64,000 bases of DNA from Planctomycetota bacterium (lineage in GTDB: Bacteria; Planctomycetota; UBA1135). Positions 5,935-13,799 of the stretch are shown here, piece by piece; positions within the stretch are counted from its first letter, which is position 1, and every line of letters begins with the position of its first letter. Where the stretch lies: NCBI GenBank assembly GCA_045047305.1, contig JASFYO010000010.1:4680-68679 (forward strand), given 5' to 3'. The position numbers were made by a program, and so were the translations under genes. Under the pieces are notes generated by a model. The model saw nothing but the letters and a program-made list of their open reading frames with translations, was not told the origin of the DNA and made no database searches.

Positions 5935-6593
5935 GTACTCCTTTGCTCGACGTTCAATCTGTGCATAAATCCTTTGCTAGCCAAAGCATTCTGGCTGAGC
6001 TCTCATTGCAATTAGATGCGGGCCAACGCATGTCCATTCAAGGCCCTTCCGGCTGCGGAAAATCCACCTTATTGCGCATCTTAGCTGGCTTAGAAAACGC
6101 TGACCATGGCCGCATTTTCCTGCATGACCAAGAAGCCAACCGCGATAAAAAAATCTTGCTGCAGCCGTGGCAACGTGGGATTCAAATGGTGTTTCAAGAC
6201 CTTGGCCTATGGCCAACCCGTAGCGTACTACAACACCTCGTGGATGTGCGTAAAGCAAGTGGACTTCCGCTACCCAAAGCCGTAGGTGAAAAGATCCTCG
6301 CACAACTCGGACTCATCGAATTCAAAAACCGTCGGCCAGGAAAATTGTCTGGCGGAGAAGCCCGACGCCTTGCATTCGCACGGGTTATGGCTCTTGAGCC
6401 CAAACTTATCTTGCTAGACGAGGCCTTCTCCAGTCTCGACCCAGACAACCGTGAACAAGGATTCGAAGTCTTGGAACAAGTTCTGAGTGCAACTGGCGCC
6501 GCCGTCATCCTGGTGACTCATGACCCCGCCGAAGCCAAACGACTAGGCGGAAAGGCCTACCGCATGATGGAGGGCAAACTCCAATGCGTGTAA
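5931..6593 (+). CDS. ABC transporter ATP-binding protein (no C-terminal TOBE domain)
   Basis: Walker A GPSGCGKS, Q-loop MVFQD, signature LSGGE, Walker B ILLDE, VTHD; ATGA overlap with the permease stop. Confidence 0.9.
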   Translation: MSTPLLDVQSVHKSFASQSILAELSLQLDAGQRMSIQGPSGCGKSTLLRILAGLENADHGRIFLHDQEANRDKKILLQPWQRGIQMVFQDLGLWPTRSVLQHLVDVRKASGLPLPKAVGEKILAQLGLIEFKNRRPGKLSGGEARRLAFARVMALEPKLILLDEAFSSLDPDNREQGFEVLEQVLSATGAAVILVTHDPAEAKRLGGKAYRMMEGKLQCV

Positions 6594-7558
6594 GCACCGT
6601 CCTCAGTTTCCTTTTTGTTGCAGCAGGCTTGGTCGTGCTGGTCAAGCTTCTTACCCCACCGGCAAGCGATGAACCATTACGCTTACTTTCCTCTGGACAA
6701 TGCTTGGAATGCCACGCCGACGTCGGCAAAGAATGGCAGGCTTCGCACCACAAATTTGCCTACGAAAATCCTGAGGTGCGCAAGCTATCCAATAATTTTG
6801 CCAACCAAGAATGCATTGCATGCCACGCACCACGCCCGGTTTTAAACTTCGAACCTGGTGAACGCGTACTCGCACGCCAAAGCGACCGCGGCCTGGGAGT
6901 TGATTGCCTGGCCTGTCATGCGCATCCTGACGGAGGGGTGGGAACGAGCAATTTGGCGGCAAAACTAGACGCCCCTTGTCGCCCCAAGATTGTGCCACGC
7001 ATGGCGTCGGTGGAGCACTGTGCTGCTTGTCACAATCAACATAAGACGGTGGAACAATGGCGCGGCGCACCGGAAAATCTCAAGGGCGACAACTGCCTTG
7101 ATTGTCACATGCCTGAAACTTGGCGTGAAGGTGGGCGTAAGGGGCGTAATCACAGTTTTCCTGCGAGTCATGACTTGCCAAGCTTGCAATCAGCAGTATC
7201 GATGCAAGCTGGCTGGGATACAGATGGTCCATGGGTGAGGGTCACCAATAATGGTGCCGGCCATAACTTCCCCACCGATGAGCGGTCGCGTGCAGCGGAC
7301 CTTCAAGTGCGCTGGAAAAACGCACAAGGAGAATGGGGCGTGTGGAAACACGTCTATCGCTTCCGGGACCCCTATCGCGACGAAACCGATCTCACCAATA
7401 CCCAAATTCCGTCGGGAGGAACCCAGCGCTTTGCCTTGTCGCAAGAAGCGGATGCAAGAGAGGGCCAAGTGCGTTTGCTTTATCGCACCAACCCCTATTT
7501 GCCGGATACCGAATCGGTACAACTTCATTCCCTCACAATAATCAGGGACACGCAATGA
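6584..7558 (+). CDS. Membrane-anchored or exported pentaheme c-type cytochrome
   Basis: N-terminal hydrophobic helix; five CxxCH motifs (CLECH, CIACH, CLACH, CAACH, CLDCH); C-terminal VTNNGAGHNFPT beta-domain typical of multiheme cytochromes. Confidence 0.88.
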   Translation: MRVSTVLSFLFVAAGLVVLVKLLTPPASDEPLRLLSSGQCLECHADVGKEWQASHHKFAYENPEVRKLSNNFANQECIACHAPRPVLNFEPGERVLARQSDRGLGVDCLACHAHPDGGVGTSNLAAKLDAPCRPKIVPRMASVEHCAACHNQHKTVEQWRGAPENLKGDNCLDCHMPETWREGGRKGRNHSFPASHDLPSLQSAVSMQAGWDTDGPWVRVTNNGAGHNFPTDERSRAADLQVRWKNAQGEWGVWKHVYRFRDPYRDETDLTNTQIPSGGTQRFALSQEADAREGQVRLLYRTNPYLPDTESVQLHSLTIIRDTQ

Positions 7559-8823
7559 TCCGAATGGGTATTGCAAGCTTTATCCTGCTTGGCATGGGCA
7601 CGGCATGCACGAAATCAGAAGTGGCCTTAAATTCCGAAACCGCGGCACCGGGATGGACACCTGTGGTGCAAAATCATTTGGACTCCTTCGCCGAGGACGC
7701 CCTGCCGCAATCAACTGCGGAGGAACAGGCAGAGGTTTTAGATCTTCTTGACTTATCACTTAGCAGCGACAAAGGACACCACCAAGCCAATCACGTACTC
7801 AACGCCGAGAAACCGGATAGGGTGACGTCAATTATGCTTGCTCTCGTAGAAGGGCGTGAGGCCAATACCGAGATCAAGGCTGAGGCTTACAAATGGTTAA
7901 GCAAGCATGGGGTCGAAGCCATGGTTCCACGCTTAACTTTACGATTTAAATATGAAAAGGATTGGGCGGCAAATGTGGATATGACTACCGGCCTTTTGCG
8001 CTTCGGCTGCGGTGCTGGCCTAGCCGCACTGATCACCATCCTTCAAACTGAAGAGGGTGTCAATGACTTGGACCATGCACGTTGGTCTGCGATTGCGGCA
8101 CTGCGCAACTTGCCTCCAGCACCAGGCTGGGTTCCAGGCGAAAATTTCGATAGTGATTGGCAACGTTTACTGACTGTAGAACGAGAATGGCGGTCGAGCC
8201 ATGTACTTTCTGGTTTCGAAGACTCTCCAGCCCCCTCCCGTGGTTATCGGGCTGAAATTTGGAAAACTTTGGCGAAGTTTCGCTCGCAACCATTACGGCC
8301 AGTGGATGACGCCCGCTTCGTTTTGATGCGCCAAGCCACTTGGGCCTTCCCCGCTATCGTTGAAACCACTTACGACGAAAATGGGTATGTTCGCGAGCAC
8401 GCCCTGCAAACCCTTGCCTGGACGGGCTCACCTATCGGTGTTTGGGCAACCCGCACCGACTTTGATTTAGCCGGCCAACTTGCACCACTTCTAGGCGACG
8501 GACGCTTACGCGGACGGGTCCTGGAGGCCATGGGGGCTAGTGGCCTGAGTGTCATGCAAAATGCCATCCTTCCGTGGTTACGCGAAGGAAATAGAGAAGA
8601 GAGTACTGCAGCAGCCGATGCCCTTTTACGTTGCGCCAACCGCGACATCCTGCGCCCGATTGAATCCTTGTTGGCCAGCAGTCCGACGCTCAGCCCAGAG
8701 GGACATTATGCGTTGGAATGCCTGCGCCATGCCTTAGATCAAGAATATGTCAAGCAAACACCAGTTGGCGTCGATCCGAGTGAAATTTCAAGACGAAATC
8801 GCTGGGCTTCCGAGCGCCAATAG
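7555..8823 (+). CDS. Lipoprotein with HEAT/armadillo-like helical repeats
   Basis: ATGA overlap with the cytochrome stop; lipobox GMGTAC; HEAT-like segments (ENGYVREHALQTLAW, LRGRVLEAMGASG). Confidence 0.65.
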   Translation: MIRMGIASFILLGMGTACTKSEVALNSETAAPGWTPVVQNHLDSFAEDALPQSTAEEQAEVLDLLDLSLSSDKGHHQANHVLNAEKPDRVTSIMLALVEGREANTEIKAEAYKWLSKHGVEAMVPRLTLRFKYEKDWAANVDMTTGLLRFGCGAGLAALITILQTEEGVNDLDHARWSAIAALRNLPPAPGWVPGENFDSDWQRLLTVEREWRSSHVLSGFEDSPAPSRGYRAEIWKTLAKFRSQPLRPVDDARFVLMRQATWAFPAIVETTYDENGYVREHALQTLAWTGSPIGVWATRTDFDLAGQLAPLLGDGRLRGRVLEAMGASGLSVMQNAILPWLREGNREESTAAADALLRCANRDILRPIESLLASSPTLSPEGHYALECLRHALDQEYVKQTPVGVDPSEISRRNRWASERQ

Positions 8824-8825
8824 AT

Positions 8826-9647
8826 CTATCCAGTGGCGCCGGGCAAGGTAGAAAACCAAGCCAGAATCAACAGACAGACAGCCACTGCAATTGCCACGTG
8901 AACATTACGCATAGTTGCATGCTGCAAGGTTGAGTGCATCTTGCGATCCCATGCCGTGGACCCATGATCTACATATTCCTTAAAGGCCAACCCCTGAAAT
9001 AGCAGGTTCATCGGGAATAGACCAAGGCACATACCCTGCACCATAACCATCACAGCTCGACGAAAGGCTTCACCATAGGTTAGTAATCGGTTTTCCTCAT
9101 GCACCACCCGAATGCGGAAAATCCACTTGCCGGGGGTCATCCCCCATTTTGAGAGTGCATAAGACTCAAAAATAGCGAGTACACCGAAAGTGACCAGAGC
9201 ACTGAAAAGAAGATTCGCTATGGTTACCTCAGAGGCGCTTTCTACTGGAACCAGCAAGCTCAACAAAATCATCACTAGGTGGTAATCAATGAGCCGTGCG
9301 AGGAAACGGTTCCAGGCCAAACGCATACGCGCTGACTGGGCCGGAGTCCGGCTCCCCGAACCGCCACTTATGGTCTCGGCGGCGCTAGCGAAAGGATTAG
9401 AGCGCACACTTGCACTCGCGGTCGAAGGTGCAGCCTTTGGCTGTACAACTGGAACTGGTTCTGGGGACGGGGGCGCGGGGCGGTAAAGCGCTGGCACCTT
9501 CTCTGCAGAAGCCCAATCCGACATGCCCTTAGACCAGACCTTTATGTCTACCGGGAGGTTCCCACCCAGCAACATGCTGCGCAACTCATCCTCGGCGATA
9601 GGCCCCTTCTGTTGGTCCCCGAGCGCGTAATACCATTCCGCGCTCAT
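8826..9647 (-). CDS. GYF_2 (DUF4339) plus RDD family membrane protein
   Basis: N-terminal WYY...QQKGP...VWSKGMSDW; Pro-rich linker; RDD motifs RFLARLID, TPGKWIFRIRV and WD. Confidence 0.85.
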   Translation of the reverse strand: MSAEWYYALGDQQKGPIAEDELRSMLLGGNLPVDIKVWSKGMSDWASAEKVPALYRPAPPSPEPVPVVQPKAAPSTASASVRSNPFASAAETISGGSGSRTPAQSARMRLAWNRFLARLIDYHLVMILLSLLVPVESASEVTIANLLFSALVTFGVLAIFESYALSKWGMTPGKWIFRIRVVHEENRLLTYGEAFRRAVMVMVQGMCLGLFPMNLLFQGLAFKEYVDHGSTAWDRKMHSTLQHATMRNVHVAIAVAVCLLILAWFSTLPGATG

Positions 9648-9994
9648 GACTTGGTCGCCTCGTCATACATAGGTTCACAATAGCCAACCACTAGGGTGCG
9701 GCCGAGACGCAACGTTGGGGCGCGTAAATTTCCAGTGGGTCCTAACATGGTCTTCCTTGCTTGCTCCGATACCTTTAGGTCCGAGCTAAGGTATTTTACA
9801 TACTTTTTACCGCGCCCGATGAACACTTGATCCACCTTGTCTAGAAGAGCACGGGCGGCGCTTGCCCCTTGAGGCTCTTTGCGCGCGTCGACCATCTGAG
9901 AGGCCTCGAAACCGTGTTTCTGCAGATAACTATCCGCATGGGTGCACGACGTTCAGCTCTTCCGATGCAGGTACCAATCAAGAGTCAAAGCCAT
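9644..9994 (-). CDS. ArsC/Spx-like thioredoxin-fold selenoprotein (UxxC), 116 aa with Sec at codon 14
   Basis: ATG 9994 reads MALTLDWYLHRKS-TGA-TSC..., in frame with the 83-aa ORF-track fragment ending MLGPTGNLRAPTLRLGRTLVVGY; SECIS-like hairpin downstream of the TGA. Confidence 0.85.
9921..9938 (-). promoter_or_regulatory. Putative bacterial SECIS element
   Basis: mRNA UGCGGAU-AGUU-AUCUGCA forms a 7-bp stem with a G-containing tetraloop starting 22 nt after the UGA at 9955-9953. Confidence 0.75.
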
Positions 9995-10022
9995 GAGGCC
10001 ATTGTACCCGCAAGTCCACCCT

Positions 10023-10898
10023 CTAAGGGTTGGCCTTGCGAACTCTTGCCCAGAATGCGGCAACCAAAGCCCAGGCAGCGGCAGCACAAACTGCGGAAGG
10101 GCCATATGGCCAATCTAGCTCTAAAGACAAGGGCCAAGCTACCAGAACACAACCGATGCCGACACCCAAAACATGCAGTAGGAATTGGTTCATGTTGTGC
10201 GCAAGTGACCTTGCCGCCAACGGAGGTAAAAACAACAAACCAAAAACCAAAATTGGCCCCACGGTCATGACACCAGCTCCAATGGTGAAACCAATGAGTA
10301 GCAACTGCAAAATTTCAACCAACTTCACCGGCAAGCCTAAGGAGACCGCTTGGTCGTGATCAAAAGCGGAAACGATAAGGGCTTTACGGAATCCAATGAG
10401 GAAAATGAAACACAGCACACTGGCACTCGACAGCACCATCAGCCCGTGAATGTCTAAGAGTAAGACTTCTCCGCGCATCATCGTTTCAGCAAGGTTATTA
10501 CCTGCCGGCGCCGAGGTCAGAAACAAAATGGACAAGGCAGATGCGGTTGCAAAAGCACCGGCCAAAACTGCGCCGGAATCCCGCGGACCTTTTGCCATGG
10601 CACCAAATACGGCAAGGGCTAAACATGCCGAACCAGCCGCGAATGGCAATAGGTAAGACATGGGCGGATGTCCATGATCGAGGAAATAGGCGCTCATGGT
10701 GGGAAACCATGGCAACAACAGAAGACCCAGTGCAATCCCAGCTGCGGCGAACTGCGGTACCGCAATCCCTAAGAAAGCTTCGCGGCGCAAGAACATTAAG
10801 GCTCCAATGAGAGGCATGACAATGCCAACCACTAGGGAAGCCAGAAAACTCAAGCCAAACAGCTCACGGTAAAGGTCGAAATCTTGAATTAAGTCCAT
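10023..10898 (-). CDS. znuB: Zn/Mn ABC transporter permease (ZnuB/MntB family)
   Basis: LRREAFLGIAVPQFAAAGIA, AFDHDQAVSLGL, VGPILVFGLLFLPPLAA; operon context. Confidence 0.85.
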   Translation of the reverse strand: MDLIQDFDLYRELFGLSFLASLVVGIVMPLIGALMFLRREAFLGIAVPQFAAAGIALGLLLLPWFPTMSAYFLDHGHPPMSYLLPFAAGSACLALAVFGAMAKGPRDSGAVLAGAFATASALSILFLTSAPAGNNLAETMMRGEVLLLDIHGLMVLSSASVLCFIFLIGFRKALIVSAFDHDQAVSLGLPVKLVEILQLLLIGFTIGAGVMTVGPILVFGLLFLPPLAARSLAHNMNQFLLHVLGVGIGCVLVAWPLSLELDWPYGPSAVCAAAAWALVAAFWARVRKANP

Positions 10899-11569
10899 AA
10901 TTTCTCCAAGCCCTCGGCGCTACACATGATTTGCGGAGGAAGCTCTTCAAGCAAGCCGTTCTTCACCAGGATAGAACGATTCACGTGATTGCGTAAAGCC
11001 AAAGGTTGATGGCTCACTAGGACAATGGAAGTCCCCACCAGCATTTGTTGCTTCAACAATTCTAAAATGATCGAGGTTGCCCGTGCGTCGACTCCGGAAA
11101 CCGGTTCATCCAAAAGCAGGAAATTGGGCTTTAGCACGAGTGAACGAGCGAGCAGGACGCGCTGTTTCTGCCCCCCAGACAAGCGCCCAAAAGCTTGCTT
11201 CAGTCTGGCCTCCATAGAAACTAAGGCAAGAGCGTGATGTACGCGTTGTTTCCTTTCCTGCGAGTTCAAACGCACCCCTTTACCCCATAGGCCCATTTGG
11301 ACCACATCTGAAACGGATGCGGGGAAGCCTGCATCGAGTTGTAGTTGCTGCGGAACGTATCCGAGAATCAGGTCCGAGGAAGCCTCACGCCTTCCTTTGA
11401 GTGTTGGCAACACACCCAACAAACTGCGCACCAGGGTGCTTTTCCCAGCACCATTGGCTCCAGCCAACAACAGGAAATCCCCTTCCTCAATGCTCAGGTT
11501 TACATTTTCCAGTACCGCACTTCCTGTTTGATAGCCAAGGTTCGCATCGACTAACCGTAAACGGCTCAT
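10889..11569 (-). CDS. znuC: Zn/Mn ABC transporter ATP-binding protein
   Basis: GANGAGKS, GYVPQ, FPASVSDVVQMG, LSGGQKQR, LLLDEP. Confidence 0.9.
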   Translation of the reverse strand: MSRLRLVDANLGYQTGSAVLENVNLSIEEGDFLLLAGANGAGKSTLVRSLLGVLPTLKGRREASSDLILGYVPQQLQLDAGFPASVSDVVQMGLWGKGVRLNSQERKQRVHHALALVSMEARLKQAFGRLSGGQKQRVLLARSLVLKPNFLLLDEPVSGVDARATSIILELLKQQMLVGTSIVLVSHQPLALRNHVNRSILVKNGLLEELPPQIMCSAEGLEKLWT

Positions 11570-12513
11570 GAGGGTTTCTCCCCATTCTCCTGCGCTTCTG
11601 GCTTGGGCAAGCCATAAGCCTGGCGCATTTGCAAAATGAGAAATTCAATGTAATCCAAATACTCGACCTGGTCTTTGCGCAACCCACTTGTAGTAGCCAC
11701 CTTGACCACGTGCAGGTCATCCTGCATCAAGCTCCGTAAACGTTGCTCGTTGTACCACGGTTCCATGAGCAGCATGTTCACATGCTGTGCTTGAATCACC
11801 TTCTTCACATTCACTAAATGTTTGGCACTGGGCGATAAGCCGGGTTTCGGCTCAATCTCCGCCGCAACCTCTAAACCATAACGCTTGGTGAAATAGGACC
11901 AACTCCGATGGTAAGTCACCACAGCCTTCCCCTTTAGGGGGGCCATCCAACCTTGCCATTTCTTAATCCGAGCCTGCGCTTCGGTGTCCCAATCCAAGAA
12001 TCGTTGTTGGAATTCAGATTTCCACTGGGGCGCCAGAGCCACCAGTAAATCATATGCGGCGCGGGCCATAATGCGGCCATTCTCGGGATCCAAATTGTAG
12101 TGAGGATTTCCACGCGGATGCAAATCTGCGCCTTGGCCTCGACTCAAAGTCTCCGGGACTTCGAGCGGAGTAATGCGCGTCCCCACATTCATATAACCCA
12201 CTCCACCTGGGCGTATAGAATTCTTGCGCGTCTTCTCCAAAAGAGCAGGCAGAAAAGCGTGCTCGTAGTCTAAACCCATCAAAATGAGTCCATCGGCACG
12301 GCTTAACTTAAGCAGTAACGATGCTTTGGGAAGAATCGAGTGCGGATCGTTTCCTGGCGGGACCAACACTTGCACATGAACATGGTCGCCCCCGATGGTG
12401 GAAACCAGATTCCCTAAATCGGGAATCGTGGCGACGATTTCAAGACGATCCTGCGCGATGGCCGGAGCGCCACAGAAAAGCAAAAGGAATGTGGTGAGTA
12501 GAGCATTTTTCAT
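11566..12513 (-). CDS. znuA: Zn/Mn ABC substrate-binding protein (cluster A-I, ZnuA/TroA)
   Basis: Signal peptide; DPH, HPRGNPHYNLDP, TYHRSWSYF, EPKPG metal-binding motifs. Confidence 0.9.
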   Translation of the reverse strand: MKNALLTTFLLLFCGAPAIAQDRLEIVATIPDLGNLVSTIGGDHVHVQVLVPPGNDPHSILPKASLLLKLSRADGLILMGLDYEHAFLPALLEKTRKNSIRPGGVGYMNVGTRITPLEVPETLSRGQGADLHPRGNPHYNLDPENGRIMARAAYDLLVALAPQWKSEFQQRFLDWDTEAQARIKKWQGWMAPLKGKAVVTYHRSWSYFTKRYGLEVAAEIEPKPGLSPSAKHLVNVKKVIQAQHVNMLLMEPWYNEQRLRSLMQDDLHVVKVATTSGLRKDQVEYLDYIEFLILQMRQAYGLPKPEAQENGEKPS

Positions 12514-12515
12514 GA

Positions 12516-13799
12516 CTACCAGTCCAAAGGATGACTATGACTACCCAGAATGATGTCCCACTGCACTGCAAGAGACCATACTGCTGAGGATCCCACCGCC
12601 AGATCTTGTGTTACTTGCGTACGCAGGCGATTAAATTCACTGAAGTTATGGGTAACAAAGACACCGCGTTGCCCACCCGCTTGTGCCGAAGAAAACCAGT
12701 CGCTACCCACCGTATTGAGTGGATCCTGCCACCAGGCAGCTTCTACGCCTGCCCCCCAGTAAGGGTTAAACTCGTATTCGTAAAAGCCCCACAGGCCATT
12801 TGCATCACGGCTTACTTGATTCGAAGCTCCGTCGATGGTGTCGCGCTGGTTGCGCCATAACTCCACCGACCAGGTCGATGCTGAGTGGTCAGAGGCATCG
12901 ACGTCGCGCAAAGTAAGGTCGATAGCGAAGGTGGTTTGACCTAGGCCAAATTCTTGATCCACGATGCCATCGGAATTGGTGTCATTCTGATCCACAATCC
13001 CGCTACCAGTATGGAAAAAGCTCAAGCCATACTGGAAGAAACCATTGACGCCATAGTCTTGTTGCGCCGCCACGCGTCCGGTAAAGCCAAACTCCGAAAA
13101 GTCATGGTTGTCAATCACGCCTGAGCCAAAGCTGCTCCCTTGCGTATGCGGTCCTGGTCCAGTTTGAATCGGGTTACTCGCGCCAAAGGAAGATAATACG
13201 CCCAAAGACCAACGCACCGGGATATCACCCATCCCCGTCCATTGGTTCAATTCAATTCCAGTGCCATTGAGATTGCCACCAAAAAAAGCCGTACGCACAC
13301 CATCTTCAAACACAAAACTTTTATCGTGCAGATGGATGGTGTTCCATTTGCCAAAGTCAGCGAGCATTTTTCCAACACGGAGACTCATGTTGGCGGGGAG
13401 CTGATCCATGATTAAGGCAGCTTCTTCTACAGAAAAAATGTCATCTTCGTACGCGATGACGGCGTAAGCCCAACCAAGCGGATCAATCCGACTGGCGAGA
13501 TCAATTTCCACGCTGCGCATGTCAAAGCCGTCGACCCCGGCTCCACGTTCCTCGCTAAAGGTAGCTAGGCCATCGAAAATCAACCCCATTGCGGGATTAA
13601 AACTAGGGTCGAAGCGCGAGGTGAATCCGGAACCACCGCCGCCCATGGTCCCAGGGAAAGTGGTGTCGAGCATGCGACTGTTTAAGGTATCTTCGAGGTC
13701 ATCGCCCTCGGTTTGCGCAAAAGCGGATTGCACGCAGAAAATCGACAAAAGGAGGGTGGCGCAAATGCCACCAAAGGAATTAGGTAAGGTCAAATCCAT
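12516..13799 (-). CDS. Outer-membrane beta-barrel of the type associated with Zn ABC systems
   Basis: Signal peptide; FNPAMGLIFDG, VEEAAL, GKMLADFGKWNTIHLH; amphipathic beta strands; His-containing C-terminus GSHSHPLDW. Confidence 0.75.
   Translation of the reverse strand: MDLTLPNSFGGICATLLLSIFCVQSAFAQTEGDDLEDTLNSRMLDTTFPGTMGGGGSGFTSRFDPSFNPAMGLIFDGLATFSEERGAGVDGFDMRSVEIDLASRIDPLGWAYAVIAYEDDIFSVEEAALIMDQLPANMSLRVGKMLADFGKWNTIHLHDKSFVFEDGVRTAFFGGNLNGTGIELNQWTGMGDIPVRWSLGVLSSFGASNPIQTGPGPHTQGSSFGSGVIDNHDFSEFGFTGRVAAQQDYGVNGFFQYGLSFFHTGSGIVDQNDTNSDGIVDQEFGLGQTTFAIDLTLRDVDASDHSASTWSVELWRNQRDTIDGASNQVSRDANGLWGFYEYEFNPYWGAGVEAAWWQDPLNTVGSDWFSSAQAGGQRGVFVTHNFSEFNRLRTQVTQDLAVGSSAVWSLAVQWDIILGSHSHPLDW

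Follow-up and report, generated by a model that had tools for sequence, protein, structure and literature searches.

The reverse strand of the stretch of Planctomycetota DNA analysed here (64,000 nucleotides, hereafter the window) carries at 9644..9994, terminal TGA included, a gene for an ArsC/Spx-fold protein of 116 residues in which the in-frame TGA at codon 14 is very likely read as selenocysteine, judging from the sequence of the gene and of its relatives. The gene is a missed member of a selenoprotein family that has already been catalogued, and its recognition is therefore an annotation correction rather than a discovery. From its sequence and a structure model, the protein is probably a small selenol/thiol oxidoreductase of the cytoplasm whose surface is basic, rather than an arsenate reductase.

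The protein scores 113.6 bits with the NCBIfam model NF041106, 'ArsC family (seleno)protein', whose cut-off is 85, and matches it over its full length (positions 1-107 of 107); the 34 sequences of alignment A1 likewise all match this model at E <= 0.001. With this family (ArsC_rel_Se_1) it shares, besides the full-length match, the UxxC motif, the alternation of selenocysteine with cysteine and a SECIS element inside the reading frame. No essential difference sets it apart; the gene falls in a clade of seven (support 83/89) in which a short hairpin with an AGUU loop is frozen at codons 21-24. 'ArsC-like' selenoproteins are already listed in a 2006 paper, and a table of the 2008 ocean survey has an entry 'Arsenate reductase 2' (cd03032, UxxC, 42 Sec sequences; PMC2398784). 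Table 1 of a 2026 review gives NF041106 as 'Arsenate reductase-like protein' with a UxxC motif, credited to Zhang and Gladyshev 2008, and grades the family there as 'predicted', as opposed to 'experimentally verified' (PMC13188914). One database match, P0015, bears the '(seleno)protein' family name. The first-pass annotation of this DNA had proposed a hidden selenoprotein, an interpretation that is supported by the sel genes of the genome and by codon 14 in homologues, and for which a curated model, NF041106, already exists. As it stands the gene matters little, since one annotation is corrected; as a small soluble member with natural cysteine orthologues and a sharply defined SECIS of 18 nt, it is a convenient object for testing the function of the family.

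Reading frame and codon 14

The gene runs from the ATG at 9994-9992 to the TGA at 9646-9644 on the reverse strand, and the only internal stop codon in this frame is the TGA of codon 14 (9953..9955, reverse strand). Read through, the N-terminus translates as MALTLDWYLHRKS-U-TSC, with U-T-S-C at codons 14-17. The putative selenocysteine is the U of UxxC and aligns with C10 of Spx, and the candidate resolving residue, Cys17 (9944..9946, reverse strand), is invariant in alignment A1. The program-made list of open reading frames starts at an internal ATG at 9895 and gives a product of 83 residues. The ends of the frame, the TGA of codon 14 and the start at 9895, along with the residues WYLHRKS-U-TSC around the TGA, had been reported at first pass and came out the same on re-reading and re-translation. 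A contig from a public sequencing run spans the entire stretch with 95-99% identity, and all 19 listed differences (21 were counted) leave the TGA and the hairpin downstream of it untouched; a sequencing error is therefore unlikely.

It had also been claimed that standard gene callers would truncate the protein, and databases bear this out. A 99%-identical database protein (P0002) is the 83-residue short form, and among the best 150 of 831 representatives (E <= 0.001) position 14 is absent together with the N-terminus in 82, while it is cysteine in 54 and tryptophan in 11. To judge by these 82 of the best 150, most database entries of the NF041106 family come without their active site.

The protein was matched in 30 of 61 related genomes. 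One of these matches (L049) is a distant YffB/Spx-like paralogue and was set aside, leaving 29 family genes; a further locus, L050, encodes the same protein as L022 and was excluded from all counts. Codon 14 is TGA in 27 of the 29 genes and TGC in the remaining two (L027 and L029), both of which come from genomes that carry selA. Across the phylum, NF041106 was matched in 68 of 251 Planctomycetota genomes, with one TGA in 58 of the 70 matches and none in 12, one of the latter being a partial match that misses the codon 14 site. Where loci were parsed at this level (26 of 30), codon 14 proved to be TGA in 21 and TGC in five. In both sets, then, homologues have TGA or a cysteine codon at this position, as a selenocysteine reading would have it, and in orthologues read from DNA the alternative to TGA is always cysteine. 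On a tree built with the codon 14 site masked, five to six changes between selenocysteine and cysteine are needed, a figure with rough support, as the bootstrap has not settled. The 13 codons 5' of the TGA are also coding-like: their residues are kept, and codon pairs for the same residue differ in 59% of cases, compared with 57% over the remainder of the gene. An ATG lies 13 codons 5' of the TGA in 27 of the 29 family genes, and 14 codons 5' in one more.

The alternative, in which the TGA reflects a nonsense mutation or an error, or the true protein is the 83-residue product starting at 9895, could appeal to the short forms that predominate in databases and to the ease with which a hairpin alone arises by chance. 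However, the presence of TGA at codon 14 across the phylum, its alternation solely with cysteine codons and the conservation of the upstream codons as protein rule out a nonsense mutation for all practical purposes. The 83-residue product is just as hard to credit, as the upstream ATG is conserved and preceded by a -10-like box, whereas the residues at which the short database forms start vary among homologues.

The gene was not found in four of eight genomes of the same genus (87-89% complete) and is therefore probably dispensable. In one orthologue (L047, G015:C67), about 20 residues after the RG motif have been lost through an in-frame deletion, with the TGA and the GPxGNLxAP motif retained.

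The hairpin and the selenium machinery

Downstream of codon 14 lies the hairpin UGCGGAU-AGUU-AUCUGCA (9921..9938, reverse strand), which has a stem of 7 bp, a 4-nt loop at 9931-9928, a 21-nt spacer and a folding energy of -7.5 kcal/mol. Counting from the UGA, its loop begins with base 22 and has G in second place, so that the element is present as the first-pass annotation had described it. The consensus for bacterial SECIS elements set out in the legend to Fig. 2 of PMC13188914 comprises a loop of 3-9 nt, a stem of 4-16 bp, a G in the first two loop bases, a spacing of 16-37 nt and a minimum free energy of -7.5 or lower; the hairpin agrees with it in loop (4 nt, AGUU), stem (7 bp) and spacer, and its energy stands right at the threshold. 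As proof of a SECIS, folding energy was rejected: the z-score is -0.59 over 60 nt (-2.0 over 30 nt), and hairpins of the model type at -7.5 kcal/mol or better follow 6.1% of 3000 sampled genomic TGAs.

The significance of the hairpin derives from conservation at synonymous sites, not from energy alone. Among the seven most similar genes, chosen by score and having a DNA identity of 52-83%, just four of the 44 degenerate columns with an invariant residue also have an invariant codon, and these four are the hairpin codons 21-24, where 84 of 84 codon pairs are identical as against a synonymous difference of 57% elsewhere. The hairpin is thus under selection beyond protein coding. Covariation is uninformative because the stem is nearly invariant in these seven genes, with no two-sided change, one one-sided change and five of seven pairs that never vary; the sole change, found in two of the seven, turns a G-U pair into A-U and keeps the pairing. 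When the region 3' of codon 14 is compared with synonymous resampling, the median z is -1.77 in genes with TGA (n = 46) versus 0.09 in those with TGC (n = 7), and the value for the query gene itself is a modest -1.93.

Beyond the closest genes, a loop containing GUU recurs at a similar distance on other stem sequences in 13 of 19 phylum-level TGA genes (several of them close kin), and some of the more distant TGA genes have longer stems. In five of the 20 more distant TGA genes of the relatives (L030, L036, L039, L046 and L047), no hairpin was found that combines a perfect stem with an early G in the loop. The other selenoprotein genes of this genome share the geometry, with AGUU or GGUC loops at 17-25 nt.

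The host assembly (2.83 Mb, 87.7% complete) encodes a tRNA-Sec(UCA) that scores 75.6 bits against a cut-off of 47 and is also found by ARAGORN, and selA, selB and selD are all above their model cut-offs. The search for selA, selB, selC and selD, on which the selenoprotein claim had been made to depend, therefore found all four. The selB gene is on the contig of the window, some 10 kb outside it, selD carries an in-frame TGA of its own, and selA is present in 60 of the 61 related genomes. Reading of the UGA as tryptophan or another residue, through an alternative code or loose read-through, might be suggested by the tryptophan at position 14 in 11 of the best 150 of 831 representatives, but is scarcely believable, since those residues most likely stem from gene callers using code 4, the genome terminates genes with TGA (this gene included) and has a tRNA-Trp(CCA) as well as the tRNA-Sec(UCA), and cysteine is the invariable alternative in orthologues read from DNA. 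Taken together, the readings without selenocysteine retain a very small share of the probability, and, on the evidence of sequence, insertion at codon 14 would almost certainly depend on SelB. As the conservation of the hairpin and the machinery of the genome suggest, SelB would bind the AGUU-loop hairpin and deliver Sec-tRNA(UCA) to UGA14, and the terminal UGA, after which there is no such hairpin, would remain a stop.

The selenoproteome of this genome is rich for one of 2.8 Mb. Scanning of 19 candidates for TGA read-through left three that look spurious (C2:29314, C20:24068 and C49:19296). The others include SelD, an FdhA-like protein (by motif only), two peroxiredoxin-type and two AhpC/TSA-like WU-GPC genes, SelW-like and deiodinase-like genes, two AhpD/CMD-like genes, a DUF3179 gene and several thioredoxin-like genes, along with two O6-methylguanine methyltransferases (PUHR) and a candidate double-Sec VPGUxxT/MsrA-like protein (C56:16881 and 16521). 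Outside the window, three genes for FG-GAP/UnbV_ASPIC (CRTAC1-like) propellers also have an in-frame TGA (C17:343 on the forward strand, C63:569 and C63:3738 on the reverse strand; L051-L053), in the motif D-L/V-U-S-x-F-W-R, and one of the three has a Pfam AhpC-TSA/redoxin domain. This propeller family has matches in 22 of 31 genomes, with one TGA in 40 of the 48 matches listed; of 25 loci read, 22 have the TGA and a conserved hairpin, and the other three have Glu, Ala or Asp, not Cys. None of the NCBIfam selenoprotein models matches the propeller genes, and a UnbV_ASPIC selenocysteine family was found neither in Table 1 of PMC13188914 nor in the main text of PMC13326102 (supplements aside), nor among the top 20 results of a literature search. 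The Sec-type propellers are more novel than the ArsC-like selenoprotein.

Predicted fold and function

The structure model (pLDDT 85.8, pTM 0.74) has a thioredoxin-type core whose redox motif lies at helix 1. At residues 56-69 a beta-hairpin is predicted, in contrast to the helical bundle found in Spx and ArsC. Profile searches returned Spx, YffB and ArsC-related structures at E 8e-9 to 2e-4. Foldseek ranked Spx first, with a best E of 1.8e-3 and a middling TM of 0.55, and Spx chains took six of the first seven ranks; in VIA, ArsC-related, Spx-like and YffB chains came top at Z 8.1-7.6, where a Z of 8.1 over 88 residues is again middling. The predicted fold is Spx/YffB/ArsC-like.

A family signature, G85-PTGNL-R91-A92-P93 (9716..9742, reverse strand), contains a putative cis-proline (P93), and its Ala92 takes the place of R94 in ArsC and of R92 in Spx. 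In the best 150 of 831 representatives, G85, G88, L90, R91, A92, P93 (kept in 147 of the 150), G104 and R/K61 are nearly fixed. The homologues are basic proteins, with a median pI of 9.3. Four Cys-form homologues (P0023, P0029, P0030 and P0128) have long N-terminal tails rich in Lys, Ala and Pro, which presumably resemble histone-like DNA-binding tails.

As a selenol/thiol oxidoreductase, the protein would hold U14-x-x-C17 at the start of helix 1 of a thioredoxin/glutaredoxin core, with P93 beside it. Following the established chemistry of CxxC and UxxC motifs, the selenolate of Sec14 would attack an oxidised sulfur or another electrophile, and Cys17 would resolve the product to give a U14-C17 selenenylsulfide. 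The YffB and ArsC-related proteins (1rw1, 2kok, 2m46 and 3gkx) are alike in size and fold class and likewise have no full arginine triad. YffB is described as a proposed glutathione-dependent thiol reductase that has one cysteine and binds glutathione (PMC3169414). In contrast, the selenoprotein has U and C rather than a single cysteine, and gshB was not found in the 87.7%-complete genome; trxB, for thioredoxin reductase, is present, and re-reduction would most likely be carried out by the thioredoxin-reductase system. R11, R/K61, K63 and R91 form a conserved basic face (the pI is about 9.3), and the partner may accordingly be acidic or carry phosphate.

It is conceivable, though unlikely, that this selenoprotein is instead a Spx-like switch whose oxidised U14-C17 pair binds nucleic acid, perhaps with RNA polymerase, and in which selenocysteine raises the sensitivity. 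Spx chains are among the top profile matches as well as heading the Foldseek ranks, and the likeness to Spx and MgsR (B. subtilis Spx; 1z3e, 6gho and 7f75) takes in the thioredoxin core, a motif of C-T-S-C type at the same place (UxxC aligning with C10-C13), equivalents of R60, K62 and R91, and a GY/FNE loop. The DNA-backbone contacts described for the Spx activation complex (T11, S12, R60, K62, R91 and Y105-E107; PMC8501982) align with T15, S16, R61, K63, R91 and G104-Y/F105-x-E107 of the selenoprotein, and among the best 150 of 831 representatives R/K61 is kept in 139, R91 in 143 and F/Y105 in 144. With several backbone contacts retained, the role may not be purely enzymatic. The basic character of the proteins, and the Lys/Ala/Pro-rich tails of a few homologues, also speak for such a switch.

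However, the base-reading R92 in the RPI motif of Spx is replaced by Ala in 138 of the same best 150 and is Arg in none of them (here the motif reads R-A-P-T), and the region of Spx G52 that binds the alpha-CTD is not conserved, a four-residue deletion falling there in what is the least certain part of the alignment; in the structure model, the predicted beta-hairpin stands where this region would be. The selenoprotein further differs from Spx and MgsR in having Sec for C10 and a shorter C-terminus, its scores against Spx models are far below the cut-off, and the genome has a separate CxxC paralogue (on C32) that is more Spx/YffB-like. Put for the family as a whole, the proposal would be that NF041106 proteins are not enzymes but Sec-gated Spx-like switches, binding nucleic acid or nucleoprotein according to the U14-C17 state, which by sequence would have kept the DNA-backbone surface but neither the base-reading arginine nor the alpha-CTD patch; this is somewhat less probable again. 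If true, it would mean a bacterial regulator that senses oxidants via selenium and is present in roughly one in four of the sampled Planctomycetota genomes, and a selenium-based regulatory switch would be a new role for selenocysteine in bacteria.

A selenocysteine-containing arsenate reductase, as the family name suggests, is very unlikely. The protein shares the fold class of ArsC (E. coli R773 type, TIGR00014) and equivalents of H8, C12 and R60, with H10 and R61 aligning with H8 and R60 of E. coli ArsC; the top VIA match, 3rdw, is a putative arsenate reductase (Z 8.1), and an ArsP_1 permease gene lies nearby on the opposite strand in one relative (L038), the single such match in the neighbour scans. 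However, the arginines described as essential in ArsC are R60, R94 and R107 (PMC3169414), and in an alignment made via the ArsC paralogue of this genome, R94 corresponds to A92 and R107 to G104/Y105, so that two of the three are absent, and UxxC is a motif of dithiol type. No ars operon was found in the window or in the neighbour scans, which took in 24 + 20 loci and 84 of 90 and 80 of 96 candidate ORFs within 1 kb (short frames and the loci of near-duplicate kin being left out). Moreover, the genome has a separate and closer ArsC of classical type (on C19; 100.5 with TIGR00014, whose cut-off is 106, and E 2.5e-12 in comparison with E. coli ArsC), as well as a gene like the LMWP-type reductases (on C74). 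In the latter (C74:7825-8748, reverse strand), the LMWP-type arsenate-reductase-like domain is fused to a C-terminal domain that by eye is glyoxalase-like.

Promoter and neighbouring genes

A TACAAT sequence resembling a -10 box lies 6 nt before the ATG (10001..10006, reverse strand) and may mark a promoter of the gene's own with a leaderless mRNA. Of the 29 family genes, 14 have TANNNT at exactly 6 nt and 18 have it at 5-8 nt. Genome-wide the motif peaks 6 nt before starts, where 96 of 1165 long ORFs have it, compared with about 11 for other positions. A -10 box just before the start codon is a mark of leaderless mRNA, and the pattern points to widespread leaderless transcription in this lineage. 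A sigma-70 scan of 8600-10300 found no full promoter and no terminator, and the support for a promoter is therefore the -10-like box. Transcription from the TACAAT box would give a leaderless mRNA extending into the downstream gene, which encodes a GYF_2 and RDD membrane protein (8826..9647, reverse strand) and whose ATG overlaps the selenoprotein stop (ATGA); the two genes are likely to be co-transcribed. The same neighbour accompanies ten of the 29 family genes of the relatives (six by Pfam; L021-L024 by likeness), all of them within the host family, and was seen at no locus among the 20 scanned at phylum level. A functional link was rejected on this distribution, and the adjacency is probably synteny.

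Upstream, a Zn/Mn-type ABC operon ends 28 nt before the selenoprotein gene, its last gene being an ABC-3 (Zn/Mn-type) permease (10023..10898, reverse strand). The operon (10023-13799, reverse strand) encodes ZnuA, an ATPase and the permease, and is led by a protein of 427 residues with no Pfam or NCBIfam match that gives the impression of an outer-membrane beta-barrel. It is a neighbour in some relatives only, adjacent according to Pfam in L020, L025, L029 and L031 and, on sequence likeness, in L021 and L024 as well; in L030 and L032 it is missing at the locus, and a metallo-beta-lactamase gene abuts the selenoprotein gene there. A functional link to metal uptake was rejected given its absence beside the gene in these two. 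Gene neighbours vary widely across loci, and a search for fusions gave one weak match among 7992 scored and no common fusion, which is weak evidence. Further along the window, a multiheme cytochrome c gene (6584-7558, forward strand) is followed by one for a HEAT-repeat protein (7333-8823, forward strand), and this pair converges with the GYF-RDD gene, the stop codons lying just 2 nt apart.
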